Below are positions 4,883 to 59,992 of a stretch of 64,000 nucleotides of DNA, one piece after another (position 1 is the stretch's first letter; every line of letters begins with the position of its first letter). The position numbers and the translations under genes are program-made. Source of the DNA: an uncultured Clostridia bacterium (lineage in GTDB: Bacteria > Bacillota > Clostridia > TANB77 > CAG-508); NCBI GenBank assembly GCA_947588945.1, contig CANPZY010000004.1, positions 2,174 through 66,173 on the forward strand, in the 5' to 3' direction. The notes under the pieces were generated by a model. That model searched no databases. It saw only the letters and a program-made list of their open reading frames with translations, and had not been told where the DNA came from.

Positions 4883-6052
4883 TTATTTTAATTCAGTATA
4901 TATTTGTTCTGCTAACATTTTCATTTGACCTGCAATTGTTTGCTCCCCTTCTTTAGCAATTTCTGGATTTCCAAATTCTTGAGAAAAATCAATAGTTTTT
5001 ACTTCCATTTCATTGTCATGTATAGAAACTTTTACTTGTAAATTATTAAATTCTTTCCCTGTACTAGCATATAAAAGCATTCCACAAACTTTTGCATTTT
5101 CACCTTTTTTTTCTATTTCCCATTTTTTATTCATAATATAAGAAAATAGCTGATACCAATTATCTCTATTAGTACTAACTGTATCTGAACCATTAAATCC
5201 TTTATTATTTAAAATATGTGAATAAAATTTTGCATCAATTATTTTTACTTTATTATTTTTAGATATAGTAATATCTGTGTGCATTGTTGGAATATATTTT
5301 TCATTTATTTTATTTTTTTCATCTACATCCCACTTTATTAATTCACTTTTTATATCTAATTGAATAGGCTGTTCTCTATATTCTAAAAAATACTTTTTTA
5401 AGTAATTTCTTATAAATTTTTCAAATAATGTATGATATGGCTGATTATCATCAATTTTTGAAAAACTTTCACTTTCATCTTTCTTTTTTATTATTAAATC
5501 ATTAAGAATATATTTACACATATTTATAATCACTTTATATTTTCTATTTAAGTTATTAAATTTAATATCTTCCCAAATAATTTTGTTAGGATCATTCATA
5601 ATCTCTATATTTTCATATACATGATATAATTTTCTTAGTTTGATTCTATTATCGTTCATAATATTACAATTTAATAAAAATTGTATTGTAGTTTTTATAA
5701 TTTTATTAATTAAATTATTTTGCGAATATTCTTCATAATTACAAATAACTCTATTTTTTATTTTTAGTACATTAGTCTGAATAGTATTTAATATATCTAT
5801 TCTTCCTTTTATGTATGGTAAGTCTTCACTATATTCTACATATTCATTATAAGTTCCTTCTTGTAATAATTCTTTCAATCTAATATATAAAACTATAGAA
5901 AATAAATCATAAATATTATTCATTTTTTCAAAGCCAAACATTTCATTATCTTCAAAATGAATTTTTTCATCATCAAAAGCATATGCAAGTAAATAATAAA
6001 AATTTCTAACTTTTATTTCATTGAATCTATCATTCATTATTATGTTCCTCAT
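4883..6052 (-). CDS. mcrC: McrBC 5-methylcytosine restriction system, endonuclease subunit McrC
   Basis: The start overlaps the mcrB stop by 23 nt. It has a PD-(D/E)xK-type motif ...TMHTDITISKNNKVKIIDAKFY... near the C-terminus, and a size and architecture typical of McrC. Confidence 0.8.
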   Translation of the reverse strand: MRNIIMNDRFNEIKVRNFYYLLAYAFDDEKIHFEDNEMFGFEKMNNIYDLFSIVLYIRLKELLQEGTYNEYVEYSEDLPYIKGRIDILNTIQTNVLKIKNRVICNYEEYSQNNLINKIIKTTIQFLLNCNIMNDNRIKLRKLYHVYENIEIMNDPNKIIWEDIKFNNLNRKYKVIINMCKYILNDLIIKKKDESESFSKIDDNQPYHTLFEKFIRNYLKKYFLEYREQPIQLDIKSELIKWDVDEKNKINEKYIPTMHTDITISKNNKVKIIDAKFYSHILNNKGFNGSDTVSTNRDNWYQLFSYIMNKKWEIEKKGENAKVCGMLLYASTGKEFNNLQVKVSIHDNEMEVKTIDFSQEFGNPEIAKEGEQTIAGQMKMLAEQIYTELK

Positions 6053-7799
6053 TTTTATTATTATTTAAAAAATTATCAATAGATGTTACATCATTACTAA
6101 TACTCAAAAAGCTCTTTATTTTTTCAATTTTTGAATTATCTCCTATTAAATACTCTTTTAATTGTGGATATATTTCATAATTTATAATAAAATCTAATCT
6201 AGTATCTAAATTTTCACAATTATTTAGACCACAAAAATAACTATGTCCAAATTTTATACCATCTAATTTTTTACTATTATTTATTGACTTAATTTTTTCT
6301 ACTAAAATATTTAAATTTGTATTATTAATATCATTTAAGTAATCTTTAAAATTGCTTTCTCCTTCTTGATCCTCAAAACATGGTTTAACTTCATACATAG
6401 CAAATCTTCTTCTTAAGGCAAAATCCATTGATGCTATTGATTTATCCATAGTATTCATTGTACCAATAAAATACACATTTTCAGGAATGTCAAATTTTTC
6501 TTCTTTATTTTCTGAATATGGTAATGTAACAGCATACTTACTATTTATATTTGCTTTTACTTGTTCTGCAGTGATTCTTTTATCTTTTTCTATAAGCATA
6601 AATGTTTCTCCAAATATTTTGCTTATATTTCCTCTATTAATTTCATCTATAATAATTACATAACAATTTTGTATATCTTTTCTGGCATTATCACAAACAA
6701 CTTTTAGAATACCATCTATTGGTTTAAATGTTCCATCATTTTGTGGTCTTAGACCTTGAATAAAATCTTCATATGCATAGCTTTGATGAAACTGGATTAT
6801 CTTTATATTATCTTCTCTATTGTTTGTTATTTTACTTGCAATCTTTCTTGCAATATATGTTTTACCAACTCCTGGTACACCTTCTAAAATAATATTTTTC
6901 TTATATTCTAATAATTTTACAATTCTATTAAATTCATTTTCACTCATAAAATTATATTCTTTAGGTTTTTTCATCACTTTTTCTGGATTTTCTAATTTTA
7001 ATTCATCGTCCTGTTCAATACTTTTATCTTCTTTATATCCGAAAAAATGGTAAGTTCTATTTATTGCATTAAATAAAATAATTGGATCATATTCTTTATT
7101 GTTTATTTCTGGTATATTGTCCCTTATATATTTATTTATTAAAAAAGATTTATGTATACAATTTAATTTTATATTTTTATCATATTCTATTCCAAGTGTT
7201 TGTATTAATTGGTTTAAAATTGAAATAGATTTTATACCAATAAATTTATCTGGATATAATTGTGTTGCCATATACAATAGCACTCCTGGAACTTGTGAAA
7301 AATATGTATTAAAATTTTTATCATTTTTAAAATAATCTGCTTTTAATAGTTCTTTCATTTTTTCTCTATTAAATGTTTCAAAATATTTTATTTCATTATA
7401 ATTGTTTGCATCTTTAATACTATCTAAAAAATCAGCTATATAATTTCTTAATTTTTTCCAAATTTCTTTTGCTTCATCATCACTTAAATTAGAATTTGCA
7501 ATTGCATATTTTTTATTATCTTGATTTCTATATATTATAAGTTTATATACAGGTCCATTAAGTTTTGGATTTTGTATTCTTACATATTCACCAAATTCAA
7601 TTTTATAACCAAAATAATTTGTAGAAATAGCTTTTACATTACTATACTCCTCTAATTTTAATTTTCTAAAATTATTTGTATTATACTCTTCTACATATTT
7701 ATCTCTTATTTCTTTATAATCTTTAGATGTTTTTATTTCTTCTTCATCTTGTATTAAAACATTAAAATTTTCTTTTATTTGTTGTATTTTTTCGTTCAT
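6030..7799 (-). CDS. mcrB: McrB-family AAA+ GTPase subunit with an unrecognised ~285-aa N-terminal domain
   Basis: Walker A is LEGVPGVGKTY. The McrB signature IIIDEINRGNISKIFGE and FIGTMNTMDKSIASMDFALRRRF are present in the C-terminal half. Confidence 0.85.
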   Translation of the reverse strand: MNEKIQQIKENFNVLIQDEEEIKTSKDYKEIRDKYVEEYNTNNFRKLKLEEYSNVKAISTNYFGYKIEFGEYVRIQNPKLNGPVYKLIIYRNQDNKKYAIANSNLSDDEAKEIWKKLRNYIADFLDSIKDANNYNEIKYFETFNREKMKELLKADYFKNDKNFNTYFSQVPGVLLYMATQLYPDKFIGIKSISILNQLIQTLGIEYDKNIKLNCIHKSFLINKYIRDNIPEINNKEYDPIILFNAINRTYHFFGYKEDKSIEQDDELKLENPEKVMKKPKEYNFMSENEFNRIVKLLEYKKNIILEGVPGVGKTYIARKIASKITNNREDNIKIIQFHQSYAYEDFIQGLRPQNDGTFKPIDGILKVVCDNARKDIQNCYVIIIDEINRGNISKIFGETFMLIEKDKRITAEQVKANINSKYAVTLPYSENKEEKFDIPENVYFIGTMNTMDKSIASMDFALRRRFAMYEVKPCFEDQEGESNFKDYLNDINNTNLNILVEKIKSINNSKKLDGIKFGHSYFCGLNNCENLDTRLDFIINYEIYPQLKEYLIGDNSKIEKIKSFLSISNDVTSIDNFLNNNKNEEHNNE

Positions 7800-7810
7800 T
7801 AATAACCTCC

Positions 7811-7836
7811 AAAATTTGATAAATTTTTAAAACTTA
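7811..7836 (-). repeat. junction motif copy (AAGTTTTAAAAATTTATCAAATTTT), partial
   Basis: Lies directly after the rhuM-family stop. It is similar to the 5' part of the motif at 9961..10000 (AAGTTTTAACAAATTCAATCAC). Confidence 0.45.
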
Positions 7837-7842
7837 TTGCAC

Positions 7843-8847
7843 TTATTTTAATTTTTTCGTTTCAATCAATAGCTTATCAAAATCAGATATAATCTTCTGT
7901 TTTTTATTAAATTTGTCATATTCTCTTTCTGCCTTTTCTTCTGCTTCCTTTCTAGAAATTTTCCCATTATCTTGTAATATATCATATTTTCTAAATTCTA
8001 AAAAAGCATTTATACTTTCTGCAAATTCCTCCATTGTAAATGTATTTTCTCTTTCGACTAAATCTTCAATATAATCAAAATATCCAGATACAGTCCTTTC
8101 TAACCTCTTTATCTGCTTTTCATCTAAATAATTTTTTGCAATTAATACATCTGATTTTAATATTCTACCATCTGGTGAATGTTTCCATGTTGTTAATCCC
8201 ATATTTTCTTTTTGGCTATTTGCTTTATTATATATAATTTCTGCTGCTGTATTTCCAGTAATTGCATAATGAAACTTATTTTGAACAGTCGCATAAAATT
8301 GTTTTGTTATATCTGAATTTTTATCATAATCTATGCTACATTCTGCAAAAATATCAGTTATCTGTTGCCATATTCTACGTTCGCTCGCTCTAATTGAGCG
8401 AATTCGTTCCAAAAGTTCTTTAAAGTAATCTTTTCCAAAAAAGTTCTCTACATTTTTTAATCTTTCATCATCTAAAGCAAAACCTTTTGTTATATATTCC
8501 TTTAAAACTTTTGTTGCCCAAATTCTAAATTGTGTTGCCTTTTTTGAATTTACTCTATATCCTACTGCTATTATAACATTTAGATTATAAATTTTTACAG
8601 GTTTATCTGAATTTGCAAAGTGCATTTTTTGCACATTGCTTTTTTCGTCTAATTCTTGTTCTTTAAATATGTTATTGATATGTTTTGTAACAACAGTTCT
8701 ATCTTTACCAAACAATTCTGCTATTAAGTCTTGTGTTAGCCATAAATCGTCATTAATAAGTAGAACATTTACTTTCACATCTCCATTTTCATCTGTATAA
8801 ATTAAAAAGTCTTTTTTTATTAAATTTTTATCATTTTTTTGCAACAA
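7843..8847 (-). CDS. RhuM-family protein
   Basis: N-terminal region ...DENGDVKVNVLLINDDLWLTQDLIAELFGKDRTVVTKHINNIFKEQEL...VGYRVNSKKATQFRIWATKVLKEYITKGFALDDERLK matches the RhuM family pattern. TTG start with AAAGGAAAG upstream. Confidence 0.8.
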   Translation of the reverse strand: MLQKNDKNLIKKDFLIYTDENGDVKVNVLLINDDLWLTQDLIAELFGKDRTVVTKHINNIFKEQELDEKSNVQKMHFANSDKPVKIYNLNVIIAVGYRVNSKKATQFRIWATKVLKEYITKGFALDDERLKNVENFFGKDYFKELLERIRSIRASERRIWQQITDIFAECSIDYDKNSDITKQFYATVQNKFHYAITGNTAAEIIYNKANSQKENMGLTTWKHSPDGRILKSDVLIAKNYLDEKQIKRLERTVSGYFDYIEDLVERENTFTMEEFAESINAFLEFRKYDILQDNGKISRKEAEEKAEREYDKFNKKQKIISDFDKLLIETKKLK

Positions 8848-8949
8848 ATTGCTTTCCTTTCTTTAAAAATTTTAATTTTCCATTGACTTTTTATAGCTTG
8901 TATTTATATTAAAATTTTGTTGTATCAATGGTCTGAAAGTGGTTTCATA

Positions 8950-8977
8950 GAACAAATATGTAGATTTGTTAAACTTA
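8950..8977 (-). repeat. junction motif copy, partial (AAGTTTAACAAATCTACATATTTGTTC)
   Basis: Shares AAGTTTAACAAAT with the other copies. It contains a 7-bp hairpin AACAAAT/ATTTGTT. Confidence 0.4.
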
Positions 8978-9020
8978 GCTTTACAACTACTGTTAAGAGC
9001 ATTTTTTCAACATTCAAAAA

Positions 9021-9058
9021 TGCTATTTTAATGCTACGCCATTAAGTTTATTAAACTT
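9021..9058 (-). repeat. junction motif copy (minus strand AAGTTTAATAAACTTAATGGCGTAGCATTAAAATAGCA)
   Basis: Starts 3 nt after the fic stop. Near-identical in layout to 9961..10000 and contains a TAAAAT -10-like box. Confidence 0.7.
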
Positions 9059-9060
9059 CT

Positions 9061-9909
9061 TTAACATTTATAAAATAATCTAAGTTCTGTATTATCTAAT
9101 TTATTATTTTTATTAAATAGCAAATTTTCAAAAAACATTATTAAATATTTGTTATCTCCTTCAATTCCATTTGAAATGTTGCTATAATTTGCTCTAACCA
9201 AAGCATTTCTAAAATATAATGAATTATCTTTGAATAGTTCGTTATTAACATTAAAACCTTTGCTATTCAAATATTTTTGTATAAATAGAGCAGTAGTTCT
9301 TGTATTTCCTTCTCCAAAAGGGTGTACTTGCCAAATGTGTGCTGTGAATTTGCATAATCTTTCTAATTTTTCTCTTTCTGTTTTTTCTGTGTATCTTTGA
9401 TTTGCTTCTTCTTCAAAATCATATTTTAAAGTTTCTTCAATCATAGAATAATCTGCATATTGTACTGATTCTCCATTTAAAATTGACTCTTTTTTTGTAA
9501 TGTTATAATCTCTAAATTCTCCAATGTATTTTTCATTGATTCCTATATCTATGTTTTCAAATAACTTTTTATGATATTGTTTCAATGTTAAATAATTAAA
9601 TGTAAAAGCTTTATCATTTAATATTTTTACTATCCTTATTGATACTTCATCAGCTTGCTTTTCACTTTTATTTACTCTTTCTTTATCAACGTTTTCATAA
9701 TATTCCTTTACTTCTTTTTCAACTATTTCATAACTTTTGTTTCCAATAATATTTTCTGTTGCTAAGTCTACCATATATTTAGAAGGAGTAAGATTATCCA
9801 CTGCTTGAAGTCCAAATGCAATATTCCAATTTAATTGGCGTTCTTTAGAATCGTTAGTTTCACCAATTTTTTCATATTTAATTTTATCTAAATATTTTTC
9901 TTCTATCAT
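9061..9909 (-). CDS. Fic/DOC-family protein with a non-canonical active-site motif
   Basis: The Fic motif region reads HPFGEGNTRTTA (9324..9289), against canonical HxFx(D/E)GNGRxxR. AGAGGT RBS 6 nt upstream of the ATG. Confidence 0.8.
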   Translation of the reverse strand: MIEEKYLDKIKYEKIGETNDSKERQLNWNIAFGLQAVDNLTPSKYMVDLATENIIGNKSYEIVEKEVKEYYENVDKERVNKSEKQADEVSIRIVKILNDKAFTFNYLTLKQYHKKLFENIDIGINEKYIGEFRDYNITKKESILNGESVQYADYSMIEETLKYDFEEEANQRYTEKTEREKLERLCKFTAHIWQVHPFGEGNTRTTALFIQKYLNSKGFNVNNELFKDNSLYFRNALVRANYSNISNGIEGDNKYLIMFFENLLFNKNNKLDNTELRLFYKC

Positions 9910-13806: not shown

Positions 13807-13935
13807 TTATCCATTTACCAATTTAAAACTTATTTTATTATCTTCTCCTACTTGTTTTTCTAAACTGTATCCACCGGATTTTAGATTAATAGAAACTATG
13901 GGGCGAAGACCATAACTAGGACCGTAAGTTTTACC
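13807..13935 (-). other. out-of-frame C-terminal continuation of the pilin-like gene (44 codons, +1 frame)
   Basis: My translation of the +1 frame gives GKTYGPSYGLRPIVSINLKSGGYSLEKQVGEDNKISFKLVNG*. It runs on seamlessly from ...GGSYLYNSD if one nucleotide (C13936) is skipped. Confidence 0.7.
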
Positions 13936-15019
13936 GATCAGAGTTATACAAGTAGCTGCCGCCCACGTGGCAAAAGCTACTATTAGCGTTCACACACTGC
14001 AGCCCGAAATCGCAATCGCTCTCATACAAATGCACATAACGGCCAGCAAGCCAGTAAATCTTATTTAAAAAATCACTACCATCTTCAGTTTTAAATAATA
14101 AGTTATAATATTCTTCATTTATAAACTGATCTTTATGGTTTATATAATCATGACAATAATATGATTGTTTGAAAGTCGGACTAGTAATTCCTGTACCTAA
14201 TCCAGTCATTATACCATCTCCATATTCTCTTTCCCACATTTCACATTCTTTATCACTTCCTGTTTCTTGACTTCCATCATATCCATATGTCCAGTGTGAA
14301 TCATAGTCTCCCCATATTTTTGGATATTTCGGATCACTATATGTTGTTTTGCTACTTCCAAAATATACTGTTCCGTTTGTTTGATCTTCTTGCCATTCAG
14401 TCTCTTTATGTTTATAATTTTTGTAATCATATGTGCTTACCTTTTGTATATCTGTTCTTCTTAAGTTTGCCACTGTTATTCCGTTTTTTTCACTTCCATA
14501 ACATTCTCTACATATTTCATTTACCGCCCACACTCCATTATTATAGCCGGACGTATTTGATAGAGTTAACTTAGCAGTTGTTGGCTTACTTGATATTAAC
14601 CTTATTGTTTTCGTTGTTTTATCATAATCCCAGATTCTCCATTGCATTTCTTCTTCCGTTTTAAAATTTTGAAGTTGTGTATATCCTGATGTTGTGGTTC
14701 CTATTGCACATTCTCCGGTTTTAGGAGTATATCCCGTTACATATGCTCCTACATAATCATTATAGTCTATTGATATTTTTTCCATCTCTTTTGCTATATC
14801 TTCCATTGCTTCTTGTTCTTGTTTTTCTGACTTTTGATACTCGTTTACTGCCTTTTTTGCCATTTTAAACAAGCCGTTTTCACTTAAAGCTGTATTTAAT
14901 GTTACCCCTGCTAATATTAATAAAATTATTATTGTTATTACCAATGCTACTAATGTGATTCCTTTTTCTTTATAGTTTATTCTTTTTTTCATTCTCTTTT
15001 TTCTCCTCGTTTTTATCAT
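13931..15019 (-). CDS. prepilin-like N-terminus protein, large secreted domain, apparently frame-broken at its 3' end
   Basis: N-terminus ...MKKRINYKEKG|ITLVALVITIIILLILAGVTLNTALSENGLF. The likely true start is ATG 14992, with AGGAG about 10 nt upstream. The C-terminal region is YWLAGRYVHLYESDCDFGLQCVNANSSF... See the feature at 13807..13935. Confidence 0.7.
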   Translation of the reverse strand: MIKTRRKKRMKKRINYKEKGITLVALVITIIILLILAGVTLNTALSENGLFKMAKKAVNEYQKSEKQEQEAMEDIAKEMEKISIDYNDYVGAYVTGYTPKTGECAIGTTTSGYTQLQNFKTEEEMQWRIWDYDKTTKTIRLISSKPTTAKLTLSNTSGYNNGVWAVNEICRECYGSEKNGITVANLRRTDIQKVSTYDYKNYKHKETEWQEDQTNGTVYFGSSKTTYSDPKYPKIWGDYDSHWTYGYDGSQETGSDKECEMWEREYGDGIMTGLGTGITSPTFKQSYYCHDYINHKDQFINEEYYNLLFKTEDGSDFLNKIYWLAGRYVHLYESDCDFGLQCVNANSSFCHVGGSYLYNSDR

Positions 15020-15029
15020 CTTGATTTTT

Positions 15030-15217
15030 ATTAAGTAGAAAACTTAATAAAAAAACTATAAATCTTATAACTCATGTATATCAATGAGTTTATAAAATTT
15101 ATAGTTTTTTATAGTTTACTAAATTGTAATAATTTTTTTTCAAAAGAATCTTGTTAAAATGCTTTTATTATAATAAGATTCATTTATATTAATTTTTTAT
15201 TAAGTTTTCTACTTAAT
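15030..15217. repeat. nested palindromic AT-rich element (25-bp terminal inverted repeats enclosing a 61-nt hairpin)
   Basis: ATTAAGTAGAAAACTTAATAAAAAA (15030..15054) is the exact reverse complement of 15193..15217. The inner hairpin spans 15050..15110 (AAAAAACTATAAAT / ATTTATAGTTTTTT, with TTATAACTCAT / ATGAGTTTATAA inside). Confidence 0.8.
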
Positions 15218-15239
15218 TAATTTTTATTATATTTTATTT

Positions 15240-36596: not shown

Positions 36597-36959
36597 TTAT
36601 CTTTCTTGTTCTTCTTTTTCTAACATTTTATCGATTTTTTCTCCGTATTCTCGCCTTAAGTCTATTAATTTATATCCTTCCTCATGATAATATGCTAAAA
36701 TACCTTTTCTATCTTCTATAATAGGAGATAAATAAATAATTTCTCTATAAATATTTGTATCACTTCCTACAAAATATTTTTCAAATAATAATAAAAATAA
36801 TGTTTTATCATTAAGACCACTTTCAAGATATTTCTTTTTAAGATTTTCATCGCTTTCTAATATTTTTTTAGCTAATTCTTCATGATAATATATTTCATCA
36901 TCTGTTATTATATTGCCTTTTTTATCTATAAAAAAGATATTTTTTGTATCCATAATCAA
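36597..36959 (-). CDS. hypothetical protein (120 aa) inserted between dnaK and dnaJ
   Basis: Clean ORF on the same strand. It starts 15 nt after the dnaK stop and ends 71 nt before the dnaJ start. No family recognised. Confidence 0.5.
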   Translation of the reverse strand: MIMDTKNIFFIDKKGNIITDDEIYYHEELAKKILESDENLKKKYLESGLNDKTLFLLLFEKYFVGSDTNIYREIIYLSPIIEDRKGILAYYHEEGYKLIDLRREYGEKIDKMLEKEEQER

Positions 36960-43410: not shown

Positions 43411-45405
43411 ATGGACGAATTAAACAATTTAAATCCTAATGGGGCAAACAATAATCCTTATCAACCAAGTAATGTTCCAAATCCTAATGCTAGTCCCTAT
43501 CAAGCAAACAATAATCAAAATTCTGATGTTAATTCTTACGAAACAAGTAACGATCCTTATAGCAGTTTAAATCCGGATTATATTTCAAATACAGAAAGTC
43601 CTTATGATTCAATGAATTCTAATCCATATCAACCAATTAATAAAAATGATATGAATCCTGACTTTCCTCAACAAGATAATAATGATTATTCACCTAGCAA
43701 TAATCAACCTGTTTTAAATCCAATATTAAGTCAAAGCATACCTAATAACAATAATAATGCTGAACCAATCAATACAGATAACCAAAATGATAGCTTTGAT
43801 GTTTCTAGTTTAGATAATCAAGACAATAATACTAACAATATGGATTATCAGTATAATAATTATGACAATATGAATCCTCAAGAAAATAATTTTGATAACT
43901 CTTTTAACAATATGAATTATCAAAATAATGGTTTTGATAGCTCTAATAACATGAACTATCAAGATAACTCTTTTAACAATATGAATTATCAAAATAATGG
44001 TTTTGACAATTCTAACAATATGAACTATCAGCCTGAAAATTTTGATAATCCTGATGTTACATCTAATTTTTCTGATCCGAATTTAAACTATCAAGATAAT
44101 AATTATAACAATCAAAATTTTGTAAATAATGAATCAAATGATGATTACAATACAGAATTCATAAAAAGATGGATGGGAAATCTTTATGAAAAAGCACATT
44201 CAAAAAAATTTAATTGGTGCTCTGCATTATTTGGACCAGCATACTTTTTGTATAGAAAAATGTATGTTACAGGATTTTTACTTGTAATACTATCATTTTT
44301 AATTGCTATATTATCAACATTTTTAGTTACAAAACTAGGAGTAGTTTCATTTGCTATAGCTGGAGCTATATCAATTCTACTAATGATAATATATGGAGTT
44401 GCTTTTTATCCTTTATATAGAAACTTTGTAAAAGGAAAACTAAATAAATTTAAGCAAACAATTACAGATAATTCTCAATTATTGAATGAAGCTACTAAAA
44501 AAGGAAATACATCAGTTATCGCTGTAATTTTATACTTTATAATATCACCTATTTTACTTTCGTTGATTATTAGTTTATTTATTAGTGCTGGTATAATTGA
44601 TATAAAAAATGCTTTTACACCAGATGTACCTCTTAAAAATGAAACTGAAAATCAAGAAGTAGAAACAGATCTACAGCCTTTTAATTTTGTTGACGATTAT
44701 ACTGTTACTTATGATGCATTAAAATGGTTTTATGATGATACTGATAATTCTTTAAATAAAGGTGGATATATTCTAACATATACAGGACAATCATTATCAA
44801 ATGTATCAGAATCTTTTGGGGTTGATGTAACAACTCCTTCTGGACGTTCATCATTACTTCAAACTTTAGCATCAAGTTATGAAACTCAAGCAGCATCTTC
44901 AAACTTAACTGTTGACCTTGGATCAAGTAACTTTGTAAGACAAACAAATGCTTATTATGCATACCTTGACGTTACATCACCAGATTCAGTTGAAAGATAT
45001 TATTTAATACTTATTCCAGAAGATGATATTATCTTCCAATTTGTTTTAACAACTGCTGACACTGCTGTTGATTTTGAAACTAACTTAGAAGTAGTAAATA
45101 TTTTAACAAGTATAGAATCTGCTCTTCCTTCTGATGAGGATATACCTACTGATGAAAATGTAATAGATGATGAATCAGACGAGAATATAATCGATAATGA
45201 AACTTCTAATTCTACTGATTTAAATTCTGTAGATGATGAAGATACTGAAAATGCTATTGGAAATGATATTGCTAATGTTACTGATGATGTATCAAATAGT
45301 GTATCAACTACCGATGAAAACGCTACTTCAGATGAGGATACTGCTACAGAAAATACATCTGGAAGTAATAATAATGTCACACCTCTATCAGATATATTAT
45401 CATAA
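43411..45405 (+). CDS. membrane protein with an N/Q/P-rich N-terminal region, a DUF2628-like TM core and an acidic S/T/D-rich tail
   Basis: KKFNWCSALFGPAYFLYRKMYVTGFLLV matches the DUF2628-type pattern. About 250 aa of N-rich low complexity precede it. There are three or more TM segments. AGGAG RBS upstream. Confidence 0.7.
   Translation: MDELNNLNPNGANNNPYQPSNVPNPNASPYQANNNQNSDVNSYETSNDPYSSLNPDYISNTESPYDSMNSNPYQPINKNDMNPDFPQQDNNDYSPSNNQPVLNPILSQSIPNNNNNAEPINTDNQNDSFDVSSLDNQDNNTNNMDYQYNNYDNMNPQENNFDNSFNNMNYQNNGFDSSNNMNYQDNSFNNMNYQNNGFDNSNNMNYQPENFDNPDVTSNFSDPNLNYQDNNYNNQNFVNNESNDDYNTEFIKRWMGNLYEKAHSKKFNWCSALFGPAYFLYRKMYVTGFLLVILSFLIAILSTFLVTKLGVVSFAIAGAISILLMIIYGVAFYPLYRNFVKGKLNKFKQTITDNSQLLNEATKKGNTSVIAVILYFIISPILLSLIISLFISAGIIDIKNAFTPDVPLKNETENQEVETDLQPFNFVDDYTVTYDALKWFYDDTDNSLNKGGYILTYTGQSLSNVSESFGVDVTTPSGRSSLLQTLASSYETQAASSNLTVDLGSSNFVRQTNAYYAYLDVTSPDSVERYYLILIPEDDIIFQFVLTTADTAVDFETNLEVVNILTSIESALPSDEDIPTDENVIDDESDENIIDNETSNSTDLNSVDDEDTENAIGNDIANVTDDVSNSVSTTDENATSDEDTATENTSGSNNNVTPLSDILS
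43900..44037 (+). repeat. in-frame 69-bp tandem duplication (2 units) inside the N-rich region
   Basis: 43900..43968 and 43969..44037 are near-identical. They encode SFNNMNYQNNGFDSSNNMNYQDN and SFNNMNYQNNGFDNSNNMNYQPE. Confidence 0.9.
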
Positions 45406-45445
45406 ATGTAATTTATAAATATTTATAAAAAATATAATTTAATTT

Positions 45446-45494
45446 AACTCTCCTTGTTAGACAAAAAAGTTTAACAAGGAGAGTTATTTTTTTC
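45446..45494 (+). terminator. Rho-independent terminator of the 43411..45405 gene
   Basis: 14-bp stem AACTCTCCTTGTTA/TAACAAGGAGAGTT followed by ATTTTTTTC. Confidence 0.85.
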
Positions 45495-45614: not shown

Positions 45615-47006
45615 ATGAATTATACTTTAGTAAAAGATTTATTTAGAAATACTGACAAATATATAGGACAAGATATAAAAGTTTCTGGATGGGTAAAAAC
45701 AATGCGTAATTCTAAAAATTTCGGTTTTATAGAATTAAATGATGGAACTTTTTTTAATAATGTCCAAATAGTATTTGATAATAATTTAAGTAATTTTGAA
45801 GATATATGCAAATTAACAATCAGCTCTTCAATTATTGTAGATGGAAAATTAGTAAAAACTGAAAATGCTAAACAACCTTTTGAAATCCATTCTACAAGTA
45901 TAGAAATATATAATTTATCAGACAATGATTATCCAATTCAAAAAAAGAATACAAGTTTTGAATTTTTAAGAACTATTGCTCACCTTCGTCCTAGAACTAA
46001 TACATTTAGTGCTGTTTTTAGAGTTCGTAGTATGCTTTCTTATGCTATCCACAAATTTTTTCAAGAAAAAGGTTTCGTATATGTAAATACTCCTCTTATA
46101 ACAGGAAGTGACTGTGAAGGTGCTGGCGAAATGTTTTCTGTATCAGCATTTGACTTTAATGATATACCAACTGATGACAAAAACAAAGTTGACTTTTCAA
46201 AAGATTTTTTTGGAAAAAATGCTCATCTTACAGTTAGTGGACAGCTTGAAGCTGAAACTTATGCAGAAGCATTTAGAAACGTTTATACATTTGGTCCAAC
46301 ATTTAGAGCCGAAAATTCTAACACTGTTAAACATGCTGCTGAATTTTGGATGGTAGAACCTGAAATTTGCTTTGCTGATTTAAGTGACTGTTTAGATTTA
46401 GAGGAAGCAATGGTAAAATATATTATTTCTTATGTTCTAGAAAATGCTCCAGAAGAAATGCAATTCTTTGAAAAACTTATTGCACCTGGACTACTTGAAA
46501 AACTTCATACTACAATTAATGAACCTTTTGGTAGAATTACTTATACAGATGCAATTAAAGAATTAGAAAAACATAATGATGAATTTGAGTTTAAAGTTTC
46601 ATGGGGAGCTGATATTCAAACTGAACATGAAAGATATTTAAGTGAAAAAATATTTAAAAGACCAGTTTTCGTTACTGATTATCCAAAAGAAATAAAAGCA
46701 TTTTATATGAAACAAAATTCTGACGGTAAAACAGTAGCAGCTGCTGACCTTCTAGTTCCTGGTATTGGAGAACTTATCGGGGGAAGTCAAAGAGAAGAAG
46801 ATATTTCTAAACTTACAAATAGAATGAAAGAATTAAACCTTAACGAACAAGATTATTGGTGGTATCTAGACCTTCGTAAATATGGTAGTGTTCCACACTC
46901 TGGTTTTGGTCTTGGTTTTGAAAGATTAATGATGTACACAACAGGAATGCAAAATATTCGTGATGTAATACCTTATCCTCGTACACCAAAAAATTGTGAA
47001 TTTTAA
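45615..47006 (+). CDS. asnS: asparagine--tRNA ligase
   Basis: Class IIb pattern with an N-terminal OB domain, [21 protein letters not shown] and [15 protein letters not shown]. Confidence 0.95.
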
Positions 47007-47013
47007 AAACGAA

Positions 47014-47053
47014 TTTTCTGCGACAGCAAGATACGGAAATATATTATTTTCTT
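47014..47053 (+). repeat. orphan right-half copy of the GC-rich element
   Basis: TTTTCTGCGACAGCAAGATACGGAAATATATTATTTTCTT compares with the right end of copy B, TTTTCTGCGACAGCAAGATACGAAAATTTATTATTTTTCTT. It begins 8 nt after the asnS stop. Confidence 0.8.
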
Positions 47054-47074
47054 ATTTTGTAATTTAATAAATAT

Positions 47075-47194
47075 AAAAAGAAAAATAATAAATTGGAAGT
47101 ATCGCGCAGCGACCAAGCGAAGCGCGAATGGAGCGAAAAGTGTTTATCACTTTTCTGCGACAGCAAGATACGAAAATTTATTATTTTTCTTTTT
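47075..47194 (+). repeat. GC-rich structured intergenic element, copy B (120 nt)
   Basis: The 20-bp perfect arms are 47075..47094 and 47175..47194. The closing helix is GTATC (47099..47103) / GATAC (47167..47171). The conserved core carries the internal hairpin GAAAAGTG-TTTAT-CACTTTTC. Confidence 0.9.
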
Positions 47195-47205
47195 TATTAT
47201 AAATA

Positions 47206-48372
47206 TTAATACCCTTTATATGCTTTCTCATAAAGCATTATAAAATCTTCTTTAGTTACATCTCTTGGATTTCCTGGCTTACAAGGATCCTCCATTGCTT
47301 TTTCTGCAAGCATCTCAAAATCTTCTCTCTTTGCACCTACATCTTTTATTGTTTGTGTTATACCTACATCTGCTGAAAGATTTTTTATACATTCACAAAA
47401 TGTTTTTATTACTTCCTCTTTTGTGAATTTTGTGGCATCAATATGAAAAGCATTAGTTAATATTTCTCTGAAATCTTCATAAACCACTTCTCCATTAAAT
47501 TCCATTACAGTTGGAAGTAAAATTGCATTTGCTAAACCATGTGGTGTATCATATACTGCACCTAATTGATGAGCCATTGAATGAACTATACCAAGTCCTA
47601 CATTTGAAAATGCCATTCCGGCTATATATTGACCTAATCCTACTTTATTAATTGCATCTTGATCAGTGTTATTTACTGCATCTGCTAAGTTATCATATAT
47701 AAGTTGAATTGCTTTCATAGAATACATTTGTGACATTATATTTTTTGATTTTGTAATATAACCTTCTATTGCATGTGTTAATGCATCCATACCTGTTGAA
47801 GATGCAACTGATTTTGGCATTGTTGCCATAAGTTCTGTATCTACAATAGACATTATTGGAATATCATGCTCATCTACACAAACCATTTTTATTTCTTTTT
47901 CTGGATCTGTTATTACATAATTAATCGTAACTTCTGCTGCCGTTCCAGCTGTTGTAGGAATTGCAATCATTGGAAGTCCTTTATTTTTAGTATTAGATAT
48001 TCCATTAAGTGAAACTATATCGCTCCTATCTGGATTTGTCATAACAATGCTTATTCCCTTTGCTGTATCAATACTTGAACCACCACCAACTGCAACTATT
48101 AAATCTGCTTTAAAATCTTTGCATACTTTTAATCCTTCTAATACATTTTCTACTGGTGGATTAGGCTTTACATCATGATAAACTGTATATTCAATGTTGT
48201 TTGCTTCTAATAAATCTGTTATTTTTCCACTAACTCCAGCTTCATATAAAGTTTTATCAGTTACAACAAGTACTTTCTTAAAACCTCTTTTTTTAATTTC
48301 TTCTGGTAAAACTTTTCTTGCTCCCTCTCCAAAATATGAGGTTTCATTTAAAACAAATTTTTGAATTTCCAT
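47206..48372 (-). CDS. iron-containing alcohol dehydrogenase (FucO/lactaldehyde reductase-like)
   Basis: VAVGGGSSIDTAKG, the metal-binding His cluster region ...GIVHSMAHQLG... and a size typical of group III ADH. ATG 48372 (MEIQKF) has AAAGGAAAG upstream. The track start is 48393. Confidence 0.85.
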   Translation of the reverse strand: MEIQKFVLNETSYFGEGARKVLPEEIKKRGFKKVLVVTDKTLYEAGVSGKITDLLEANNIEYTVYHDVKPNPPVENVLEGLKVCKDFKADLIVAVGGGSSIDTAKGISIVMTNPDRSDIVSLNGISNTKNKGLPMIAIPTTAGTAAEVTINYVITDPEKEIKMVCVDEHDIPIMSIVDTELMATMPKSVASSTGMDALTHAIEGYITKSKNIMSQMYSMKAIQLIYDNLADAVNNTDQDAINKVGLGQYIAGMAFSNVGLGIVHSMAHQLGAVYDTPHGLANAILLPTVMEFNGEVVYEDFREILTNAFHIDATKFTKEEVIKTFCECIKNLSADVGITQTIKDVGAKREDFEMLAEKAMEDPCKPGNPRDVTKEDFIMLYEKAYKGY

Positions 48373-54725: not shown

Positions 54726-54800
54726 AAAAAATATGCTTTTTATATAGAATATCATAAAGTTTGTATAAACTTTAAAATTCTTATAAAAAGCATATTTTTT
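54726..54800. terminator. bidirectional terminator between the GH57 gene and rplS
   Basis: 19-bp perfect arms AAAAAATATGCTTTTTATA / TATAAAAAGCATATTTTTT enclose a small inner hairpin AAAGTTT-GTAT-AAACTTT. Confidence 0.75.
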
Positions 54801-59467: not shown

Positions 59468-59992
59468 CTATGAATTATTTATTTGTGATAATTCTTCTGA
59501 TAATCTATAATAGGTATTTCCATTATATTGTACACCTTTTACATAGTATATAGTTCTGCTTTGTGCATTTATTATATATACATCATCTGAACCGGTATAC
59601 GTTGATTCATTTCCATTTAAATTATGATTTCCTGAACCATTATTTAATTCTGCCATGTCAGTTGCTAAATTTGAATTAACTTTTTTTATATTTATTACAT
59701 AATAAGTACTATTATCATTTGGATTTTTAATATCTTTACCATTCTGTTTACCTTCTAAAAAAGCAGTTGAACCACTATATCTAGGTCCTATATCTTTTAT
59801 ATCTTTATCAAAAAAAGCAACACTTACAGACTCTCTTAAATTATCTATATCTTCTTTAAATTTTGAATATTCATTAAATTGTACTATATTAGTTGTATTT
59901 ATAATAACTGGTATAGAGATTAATGATAAAATTACTATAATTATAACTAAAACAATTAATGTTATTCCTCTTTCATTTTTTAACTTTTGCAT
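59468..59992 (-). CDS. prepilin-like N-terminus protein (174 aa)
   Basis: MQKLKNERG|ITLIVLVIIIVILSLISIPV. GAAGGA RBS 8 nt upstream. The C-terminus is ...DDVYIINAQSRTIYYVKGVQYNGNTYYRL. Confidence 0.7.
   Translation of the reverse strand: MQKLKNERGITLIVLVIIIVILSLISIPVIINTTNIVQFNEYSKFKEDIDNLRESVSVAFFDKDIKDIGPRYSGSTAFLEGKQNGKDIKNPNDNSTYYVINIKKVNSNLATDMAELNNGSGNHNLNGNESTYTGSDDVYIINAQSRTIYYVKGVQYNGNTYYRLSEELSQINNS

Follow-up and report, generated by a model that had tools for sequence, protein, structure and literature searches.

A palindromic intergenic repeat family with a conserved three-way junction in low-GC gut Clostridia

Among the closest known counterparts of the intergenic repeat reported here are the REPINs, or REP-BIMEs, which RAYT (HUH Y1) transposases mobilise (PMC3116915, PMC3337134). 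Common to both are extragenic, non-coding long-hairpin repeats of ~100 nt that occur in dozens of copies per genome, keep their pairing through two-sided changes, persist vertically within a clade and have a single-stranded fold as their presumed substrate. REPINs, however, conserve the inverted REP arms, with a GTAG-type motif, around a variable middle, whereas our element has an invariant centre and variable arms; a three-way junction is undescribed for REPINs, and no RAYT gene lies in our window or beside the copies. The REP signature of a 20-40-nt palindrome with a 5' GTAG and an inverted doublet was not found, GTAG occurring only in the GTAGC variant of one helix. MITEs and other palindromic repeats, such as Correia, ERIC, RUP and BOX (PMC10969869, PMC2229807), resemble the element in size, intergenic location, presence or absence between strains or species, the ability to act as terminators or RNA hairpins, and terminal inverted repeats shared within subfamilies, which in our copies are the inner arms. 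Unlike MITEs, it has no target-site duplication, no related insertion sequence with the same ends was found, there is no sequence similarity, and its internal core is more constrained than its termini. The GC clusters of yeast mitochondrial DNA and the double-hairpin elements of fungal mitochondrial DNA are short GC-rich hairpin repeats in the AT-rich spacers of very AT-rich genomes, with mobility, of unknown mechanism, inferred from their distribution. Our element is likewise a GC-rich hairpin repeat scattered in AT-rich spacers with mobility inferred, but sequence and host are unrelated, and those mitochondrial elements are without long AT-rich arms or an invariant three-way junction. The inverted terminal repeats of parvoviruses such as AAV have a long stem whose tip is a three-way junction of two small hairpins with 3-nt loops; they form the termini of a linear ssDNA genome, alternate between flip and flop through hairpin transfer in replication, and are read as folded ssDNA by an HUH protein. 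The likeness to our element, a stem with a three-way junction tip in two orientations relative to that stem, is one of form only, as the element is chromosome-internal and no Rep-like gene is known for it. Integron attC sites share retained structure with varying stem sequence, folded ssDNA and a location 3' of genes, but our alignments contain no R''/R' core (RYYYAAC...GTTRRRY), there is no integrase gene, and the neighbours are housekeeping genes (obg, asnS, dnaJ) rather than cassettes. Finally, segments between short inverted repeats recurrently invert among relatives in plastid DNA (PMC6824564, PMC12371153), where the loops are arbitrary, while the segment inverted here is a conserved, structured, multi-copy core.

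The stretch of DNA that we analysed, a 64-kb window from an uncultured Clostridia bacterium, is the core chromosome of a spore former with nothing unusual in it (obg, spoIIP, a gerA operon, RNase R, hrcA-grpE-dnaK-dnaJ, recG, ffh, rimM-trmD-rplS, spoVT). An earlier note on this DNA had described three copies (A, B and C; Table 1) as a structured family with covarying helices, and this proved real: on re-reading the window all three are present with the coordinates and sequences given there, and both their folds and the covariation of the wider family agree. Chance would give 0.15 occurrences of the 11-mer GCGAATGGAGC, which the window contains exactly three times, and the full elements A, B and C fold better than shuffles as RNA (z of -7.3, -5.6 and -5.2) and as DNA (z of -7.2, -6.1 and -4.9), DNA folding beating the shuffles whichever strand is taken. 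By Pfam, the flanking genes encode Obg, a class-II aminoacyl-tRNA synthetase and a PGA_cap domain protein; the label asnS is that of the earlier note, the precomputed domains resolving only the D/K/N family. Two further claims about the copies stand in part. The arms were said to be perfectly complementary and different in sequence in each copy, which is true of copy B (20 nt, 100% complementary, 80 nt apart; repeat I11); those of copy A, however, are 23 nt long with 96% complementarity, copy C has a perfect 20-nt stretch within an imperfect 69-nt inverted repeat of 77% complementarity, and the inner ~15-20 nt follow a family consensus, AAAA-TAYAAT-N3-6-TTT. The variable hairpin P3 was said always to fold, but that of copy C, folded alone, has an MFE of 0.0, that is, no fold, because its 5' strand (TCTT) is mutated relative to the GCTG of its orthologue, locus L047. 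The truncated tandem remnant next to copy B begins directly past the asnS stop codon, and a shorter version of it is seen in the orthologue of this site, L029.

Table 1. Positions of the three copies in the window, of the parts of copy B and of associated repeats
Feature	Position	Strand	Remarks
Copy B, complete element	47075..47194	+	between convergent asnS and Fe-ADH genes; covariance model 105 bits
Copy B left arm, AAAAAGAAAAATAATAAATT	47075..47094	+	pairs with 47175-47194
Copy B closing helix P1b, 5' strand GTATC	47099..47103	+	partner GATAC at 47167-47171; five pairs covary family-wide
Junction strand 1, GCGC-AGCGACCAA	47104..47116	+	AGCGACCAA part forms invariant columns
P2 mini-hairpin GCGAAGC	47117..47123	+	closing pair covaries; fits GCGNAGC
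Junction strand 2, GCGAATGGAGC	47124..47134	+	invariant
P3 variable hairpin, GAAAAGTG-TTTAT-CACTTTTC	47135..47155	+	unrelated hairpin instead in orthologue L029
Junction strand 3, GCGACAGCAA	47157..47166	+	
Copy B right arm	47175..47194	+	12 nt short of the convergent Fe-ADH stop codon (47206)
5'-truncated tandem-copy remnant	47014..47058	+	P3 3' half, GCGACAGCAA, GATAC, right-arm-like tail
Copy A, complete element	20925..21053	-	12 nt past the obg stop codon; covariance model 108.8 bits
Copy A parts (repeat I7)	arms 21053-21031 and 20947-20925; core 21027-20950	-	
Copy C	63583..63700	+	3' of PGA_cap (CapA-like) gene; P3 5' strand mutated; 99.9 bits
A-rich/T-rich imperfect inverted repeat around copy C (repeat I1)	63534..63749	+	69-nt arms, 77% complementary

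The minimal unit is small, non-coding and palindromic, ~105-130 bp in length, with AT-rich arms that form a near-perfect inverted repeat of 15-52 bp around a 5-bp helix (P1b) and a GC-rich three-way junction, the latter carrying two small hairpins (P2 and P3) and about 26 invariant purine-rich nucleotides. Read 5' to 3' on the purine-rich strand, the parts follow one another as arm, internal loop, P1b, GCGY(A)-AGCGACCAA, P2, GCGAATGGAGC, P3 (10-44 nt), an optional T or TA, GCGACA-R-CAA, the partner strand of P1b, loop and second arm; in the internal loop TTTGCA or TTGAA faces AAA or GAAA. By alignment columns, the invariant junction strands are AGCGACCAA, GCGAATGGAGC and GCGACA, or GCGAC at minimum. 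P2 takes the form of a two-pair mini-hairpin (GCGAAGC, GCGTAGC or ACGAAGT), a GNRA-type hairpin (GCGCAAGC, GCGTAAGC or GCAC-GAAA-GTGC) or a six-pair stem with tandem G·A/A·G pairs or GUA/GAA internal loops. Pairing holds in 94% of cells of the model-fitted alignment, compared with 62.7% in shuffles, double-sided changes are present at all 23 of 23 pairs, and the covariation score of 0.72 exceeds both the 0.20 of shuffles and the 0.14 or less obtained with the partners slid; an independent MAFFT alignment gives the same picture. The claim that the closing helix changes from copy to copy yet stays complementary thus extends beyond the window, with both P1b and the small hairpin covarying across the wider family, the closing pair of P2 being AU in 21 copies and GC in 19. 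Additional pairing joins the G and Y of GCGY in strand 1 to the C and R of RCAA in strand 3. For the first of these pairs (G27-C) we count 36 GC, three GU and one AU; the second (Y28-R) is UA in 16 and CG in 14, and its nine unpaired cells (10 in the MAFFT version) fall mostly within the GCGTA/ACACCAA subfamily. RNAalifold offered an alternative helix between GCGY and the last bases of P2, which we reject, as P2 is itself a covarying hairpin and already uses those bases. Pairings inside AGCGACCAA, GCGAATGGAGC and GCGAC lie beyond the reach of covariation because these sequences do not vary, so that the junction pairs CCA/UGG and GC/GC, both invariant, are put forward as proposals. Other candidates were set aside: a small ORF from the ATG of GCGAATGGAGC meets a stop codon three codons on in copy A, and group II intron ends (GUGCG) and tRNA-like features, judged by eye, are not conserved across copies. 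The tandem G·A pairs and the GNA or GNRA loops occur in the purine-rich strand only, and this confinement of the G·A pairs and the purine-rich junction to one strand means that one particular strand folds.

The family comprises at least 50 copies in about 19 genomes of low-GC uncultured gut Clostridia and in gut metagenome contigs. A pattern built from two invariant strands and run against one-genome-per-species bacterial and archaeal contigs matched 52 places, 37 of them with the complete architecture, and these 37 loci belong to 18 MAGs labelled "uncultured Clostridia", of 23-32% GC, from the guts of rabbits, Hadza and Nepali humans. The remaining 15 matches fall in high-GC genomes and a further 21 in high-GC metagenome sequence; both sets lack the rest of the element and are treated as chance. 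A covariance model, the search that the earlier note had suggested, recovered 43 copies in the scanned material and nine in other loci, among them a few from gut metagenome contigs. Several metagenomic contigs terminate within the element. No curated Rfam model reached its gathering score anywhere in the window, and a permissive scan around copy B returned nothing beyond noise (E-values no better than 2.6), in keeping with the previous suggestion that this is not a named RNA family. The pattern matched nothing in viral contigs, and plasmid and phage records, queried with the core by BLAST, yielded only a chance match to hisD. The family is previously unnamed and, in the sequences searched, found only in low-GC gut Clostridia.

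Within these genomes the element occupies a consistent position without a consistent direction. Neighbouring long ORFs were called for 37 copies: 14 point opposite to both neighbours, 12 in the same direction as both, seven lie between convergent genes and two between divergent ones. In 33 of the 35 copies with two neighbours a gene 3' end faces the element, at a median gap of roughly 35 nt; it therefore occupies terminator territory in either orientation. The rule that a copy lies 3' of a gene and is co-oriented with it describes the three window copies (beside obg, asnS and the capA-like gene), but across the family the copies face their neighbouring genes in random orientation, and the folding strand bears no fixed relation to transcription. 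Furthermore, in four of eight orthologous pairs, as defined by comparison of their flanks, the core has opposite orientations with respect to both flanks (L003/L033, L012/L017, L025/L042 and window copy A/L044). The copy A/L044 flip was verified by alignment, so that co-orientation is not kept in the orthologue of this window copy. These flips are between genomes rather than inside one population, at a flank divergence of 2-10%, and in L012/L017 it is an outer 30-bp inverted repeat, not the inner arms, that marks the limits of the inverted segment.

Orthologous sites were compared as filled and empty, as proposed in the earlier note, and both the asnS and the dnaJ sites vary between species. 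In the asnS/Fe-ADH spacer, the window and L029 have a GTATC-type copy, while L086 and L087 have a degenerate copy of a different subfamily, the AGCC type, on the opposite strand; the site is empty in three related lineages (L053-55, L084-85 and L090-91), where only ordinary long-stem terminators are present. At dnaJ, L016 has the element in a spacer that in the window contains an ordinary terminator. This polymorphism was seen at the level of species, and there was no clean filled/empty pair with alignable flanks, each species with an empty site having an otherwise diverged spacer. Modules are also exchanged. Window copy B differs from L029 solely in an unrelated P3, which in L029 closely resembles that of L043 with one loop base fewer, and L003 and L033 have different P2 hairpins. 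Spread is seen in an identical core that sits within different arms in L030, L040 and window copy B, and in L086 and L011, from different genomes, which have identical 19-bp arms and one core subfamily at unrelated loci. The arms evolve in concert, with substitutions between orthologues mirrored in both; the paralogues L004 and L037 have perfect arms (at least 52 and at least 44 bp, respectively) that differ between the two at several positions, each difference being mirrored within its own copy. Decay is seen in the remnant beside copy B and in a second degenerate tandem copy in L040, while L019, L008, L048, L086 and window copy C are altered in the element or its junction. Repeats flanking 36 copies had lengths of 0 (13 copies), 1 (17), 2 (2) and 3 (4), which is chance level in AT-rich DNA and leaves no target-site duplication, and a 10-bp direct repeat around L017, ACTATTTAAT, is no insertion duplication, being common to the paralogue L027 as part of a larger repeated unit. 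We found no split or autonomous version with the junction halves separated by a gene, no transposase, recombinase, Y1 or HUH gene among the 46 ORFs of the window, no recurrent gene family adjoining the copies in about 330 kb, and no parent insertion sequence with the same ends and a transposase in plasmid and phage records, viral contigs or ~410 kb of loci.

We propose that the element is a clade-restricted selfish palindromic repeat of REPIN/MITE-like character that acts through folded ssDNA and doubles as a terminator hairpin, a reading to which we give about an even chance of being correct. The comparisons show that the family has multiplied to dispersed intergenic sites, almost always at gene 3' ends, where AT-rich terminator hairpins otherwise sit, and that its copies are gained and lost between species, swap hairpin modules and in some cases decay. 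The fold would act on one strand of single-stranded nucleic acid, most probably ssDNA exposed during replication, and the invariant junction would serve as the recognition module of a putative trans-acting copying enzyme. A DNA-level element is favoured by the independence from transcription direction and the inverted cores described above, and by two DNA-like traits set out below, the rarity of G·U pairs and the agreement of the short P2 forms with a mini-hairpin DNA consensus. That agent most likely works on folded ssDNA in the manner of HUH enzymes, which act on the folded ssDNA of IS200/IS605 elements and REPINs (PMC6006769, PMC3116915). The frequent inversion of the core between arms that stay almost perfectly complementary may then reflect recombination or replication template-switching between the arms, which would both flip the core and homogenise the arms, as template-switching is known to correct quasipalindromes (PMC7202029). 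Transcripts of either orientation would contain a long hairpin with an A-tract and a U-tract, that is, a candidate bidirectional terminator or 3'-end hairpin, and such a role would render the element tolerated or useful. Any such activity is a prediction: a scan of 46800-47400 for consensus intrinsic terminators, with a G+C-rich stem, a 3-8-nt loop and a U tract, found none, the element itself being a branched hairpin of ~110 nt whose basal arms are AT-rich and which carries A/T tracts. The clade's ordinary terminators are long perfect AT-rich hairpins (a 21-bp stem in L090). The earlier suggestion of a mobile element landing in terminator hairpins agrees with the empty or differently filled asnS site and with L016 and L017, in which terminator-like outer stems enclose the whole element and so support residence within such hairpins, but the arms are in part the element's own. 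Several points speak against a selfish repeat. Invariance of the 26-nt junction across many species could equally mean a host function, conservation of the centre instead of the termini is atypical for MITEs and REPINs, and the loci searched yielded neither enzyme, target-site duplication, autonomous copy nor alignable filled/empty pair. A stronger version, which we think rather improbable, holds that the junction and its DNA-type mini-hairpin are the recognition/nicking or priming site of an undiscovered ssDNA enzyme, for example an HUH endonuclease or a primase, with flip and flop mechanistically linked to replication in a parvovirus-like way rather than a passive by-product of the arms. If true, this would define a new class of ssDNA-structured mobile element.

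Four rivals to the selfish-repeat reading follow in descending order of probability: a functional RNA of the host, a priming signal on ssDNA, a programmed inverton and a new ribozyme. The first holds that host selection keeps the junction in a functional structured RNA, which could work as a 3'-UTR or terminator module, stabilise mRNA 3' ends, be targeted by an RNase or bind a protein. We consider this reading unlikely, if the best placed of the four. The element does lie just past stop codons, where it replaces ordinary terminators and is the only strong hairpin of the obg and asnS spacers, its arms have an A-tract/T-tract layout, and a junction that is invariant across species and surrounded by strongly covarying helices is what such an RNA would present. 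GNRA loops and tandem G·A pairs are moreover typical of RNA, and the P2 tetraloops and loop-E-like GUA/GAA internal loops are equally compatible with it, which also counts against the selfish repeat. However, the copies are oriented at random with respect to transcription and half of the orthologous pairs have a flipped core, therefore half of the read-through transcripts would carry the complement, without the G·A and purine features. The pairs themselves also look unlike RNA: G·U makes up eight of 878 cells of the family alignment, 17 of 1237 arm pairs and five of 218 P3 pairs, a scarcity that, from what is generally known of RNA under structural selection, would be unusual. Copies decay and are not kept at orthologous sites, and by scan and sequence inspection the flipping segment has no conserved promoter. 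No promoter-like site lies wholly within the core of copy B; one overlaps the copy (GCGACA, 16 nt, then TATTAT in the right arm) and points outward, and the idea that this or the TAYAAT-like hexamer of the inner arm is a promoter was dropped, the candidates being symmetric or weak and at shuffle level. The random orientation, the flips in four of eight pairs and the near absence of G·U likewise tell against the previous proposal of a 3'-UTR RNA tied to the upstream gene.

A very unlikely alternative, on our weighing, is that the junction is a replication signal on ssDNA, an ssi- or sso-like priming site for primase or RNA polymerase, which would have been domesticated or else belong to a selfish element as its origin-like module. 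This draws on P2, in which GCGAAGC was recognised by the earlier note as a known stable mini-hairpin. Judged by their sequences, the short-P2 copies (GCGAAGC, GCGTAGC, GCGCAAGC and GCGTAAGC) fit the mini-hairpin DNA consensus GCGNAGC/GCGNNAGC, which is made of two G-C pairs and a sheared G·A pair and is found at the complementary-strand origin of phage G4, at RSF1010 ssiA and in phage N4 promoters (PMC13037366). The stems, furthermore, are strictly Watson-Crick. Junction strand 1 contains YAGCGA, which we take to resemble the ssoA CS-6 motif TAGCG(T/A). Such signals, however, depend on orientation, which in the element is random, plasmid and phage records hold nothing similar in sequence, and to our knowledge ssi and sso signals do not exist as dispersed chromosomal copies.

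The flips invite the reading of a programmed inverton, in which a site-specific invertase turns the core between the arms and toggles a directional signal for the neighbouring genes. The segment is indeed present in both orientations between inverted repeats whose inner parts share a consensus, in half of the pairs at only 2-10% flank divergence, and none of four ordinary hairpin loops was flipped between the same two genomes. We nevertheless regard it as a long shot: no invertase or recombinase gene was found in the window or adjoining the copies, the core has no promoter to toggle, the outer repeat that bounds L012/L017 is better explained by general repeat-mediated recombination than by a fixed site, and enzyme-free inversion of hairpin loops is well known in plastid DNA (PMC6824564). 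That the junction is the catalytic or ligand-binding core of a new small ribozyme or riboswitch is barely credible, since three covarying helices around about 26 invariant nucleotides and the absence of a match to any known family are set against an element that is multi-copy, independent of orientation, tied to no gene class, placed at 3' rather than 5' ends, poor in G·U and tolerant of decayed copies.

On present evidence we place the element as a new variant within the palindromic intergenic repeats, and not as a new category. It is a variant because of its inverted layout, with an invariant structured centre and variable, co-evolving arms, and because of its frequent flip/flop. It adds a well-defined repeat family to a poorly studied branch of uncultured gut Clostridia, in which the flipping of cores, the mirrored changes in arms and the exchange of modules provide a natural record of how hairpin DNA evolves in bacteria. 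The family also illustrates a hazard for annotation, as covariation alone would suggest a structured RNA where the orientation data point to an element that acts at the level of DNA. Finally, the 26 invariant nucleotides are a precise bait for an enzyme that reads the junction, and if a dedicated enzyme does so, this would amount to a new mobile-DNA mechanism.

Besides its intact copies, the element, a small palindromic repeat in which AT-rich complementary arms enclose a GC-rich three-way junction, is found in partial and decayed form. At L040, one of the loci compared from other genomes and metagenome contigs, an intact copy (1376-1481) adjoins a second copy that has the same arms and a degenerate core, with ACCAA changed to ATCAA and the P3 hairpin gone. 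L040 thus demonstrates that tandem duplication of the entire unit can occur, with decay to follow. The window itself holds a 5'-truncated remnant, which retains the 3' half of P3, GCGACAGCAA, GATAC and a tail resembling the right arm, and a shorter version of this remnant is still present in L029, the orthologue of the asnS/Fe-ADH locus.

Partial and tandem element copies and other nested structures
Feature	Location	Setting
Second element copy, 5'-truncated remnant	window 47014-47058	directly 3' of asnS stop codon
Tandem second copy	L040 1508-1593	adjoins intact copy
Nested hairpin	window 54726-54800	convergent GH57/rplS terminator
Nested palindromes	window 15025-15220	intergenic, one gene on either side

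Comparison with L029 also covers ordinary terminators. The hairpin at window 45445-45486 differs between the two genomes by a compensatory double substitution (CTCTCC/GGAGAG against CACTCC/GGAGTG), and no inversion relative to the flanks was seen in its loop or in three other ordinary hairpin loops. In a related species the asnS/Fe-ADH spacer (L053 1700-1900) is an empty site carrying an ordinary terminator, after which lie about six tandem copies of a T-rich unit of about 33 nt (ttattttcttagtttgcttctctgtttt...).

The GH57/rplS terminator has a perfect AT-rich stem of 18-19 bp, and its loop of 37-39 nt holds a small hairpin of its own, AAAGTTT-GTAT-AAACTTT; in general layout it is like the element, but it is without the GC-rich core. 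The nested palindromes have outer arms of 28 nt, 138 nt apart and with 96% complementarity, both of which are themselves small hairpins, and a further 21-nt inverted repeat lies inside. Copy C lies between stretches of low complexity, A-rich on its upstream side (window 63500-63580) and T-rich on its downstream side (63700-63790; a TTTATATTTTTA-type repeat), which together make up its 69-nt imperfect inverted repeat.

The surroundings are core chromosome apart from a small defence/accessory islet (window 4886-9909) coding for a McrBC component, an AAA_5 ATPase (McrB-like), a RhuM-family protein and a Fic/DOC protein. Window ORFs 43411-45405, 13934-15019, 36600-36959, 59471-59992 and 61449-61937, one of which lies immediately before asnS and encodes 664 aa, gave no Pfam match at E <= 1e-8.

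Four metagenomic contigs (L009, L048, L057 and L059) terminate within the element, and two more (L088 and L089) reach only as far as the asnS stop, a little short of the element. Such ends are consistent with assembly breaks arising from the repeated core or from heterogeneity in its orientation.
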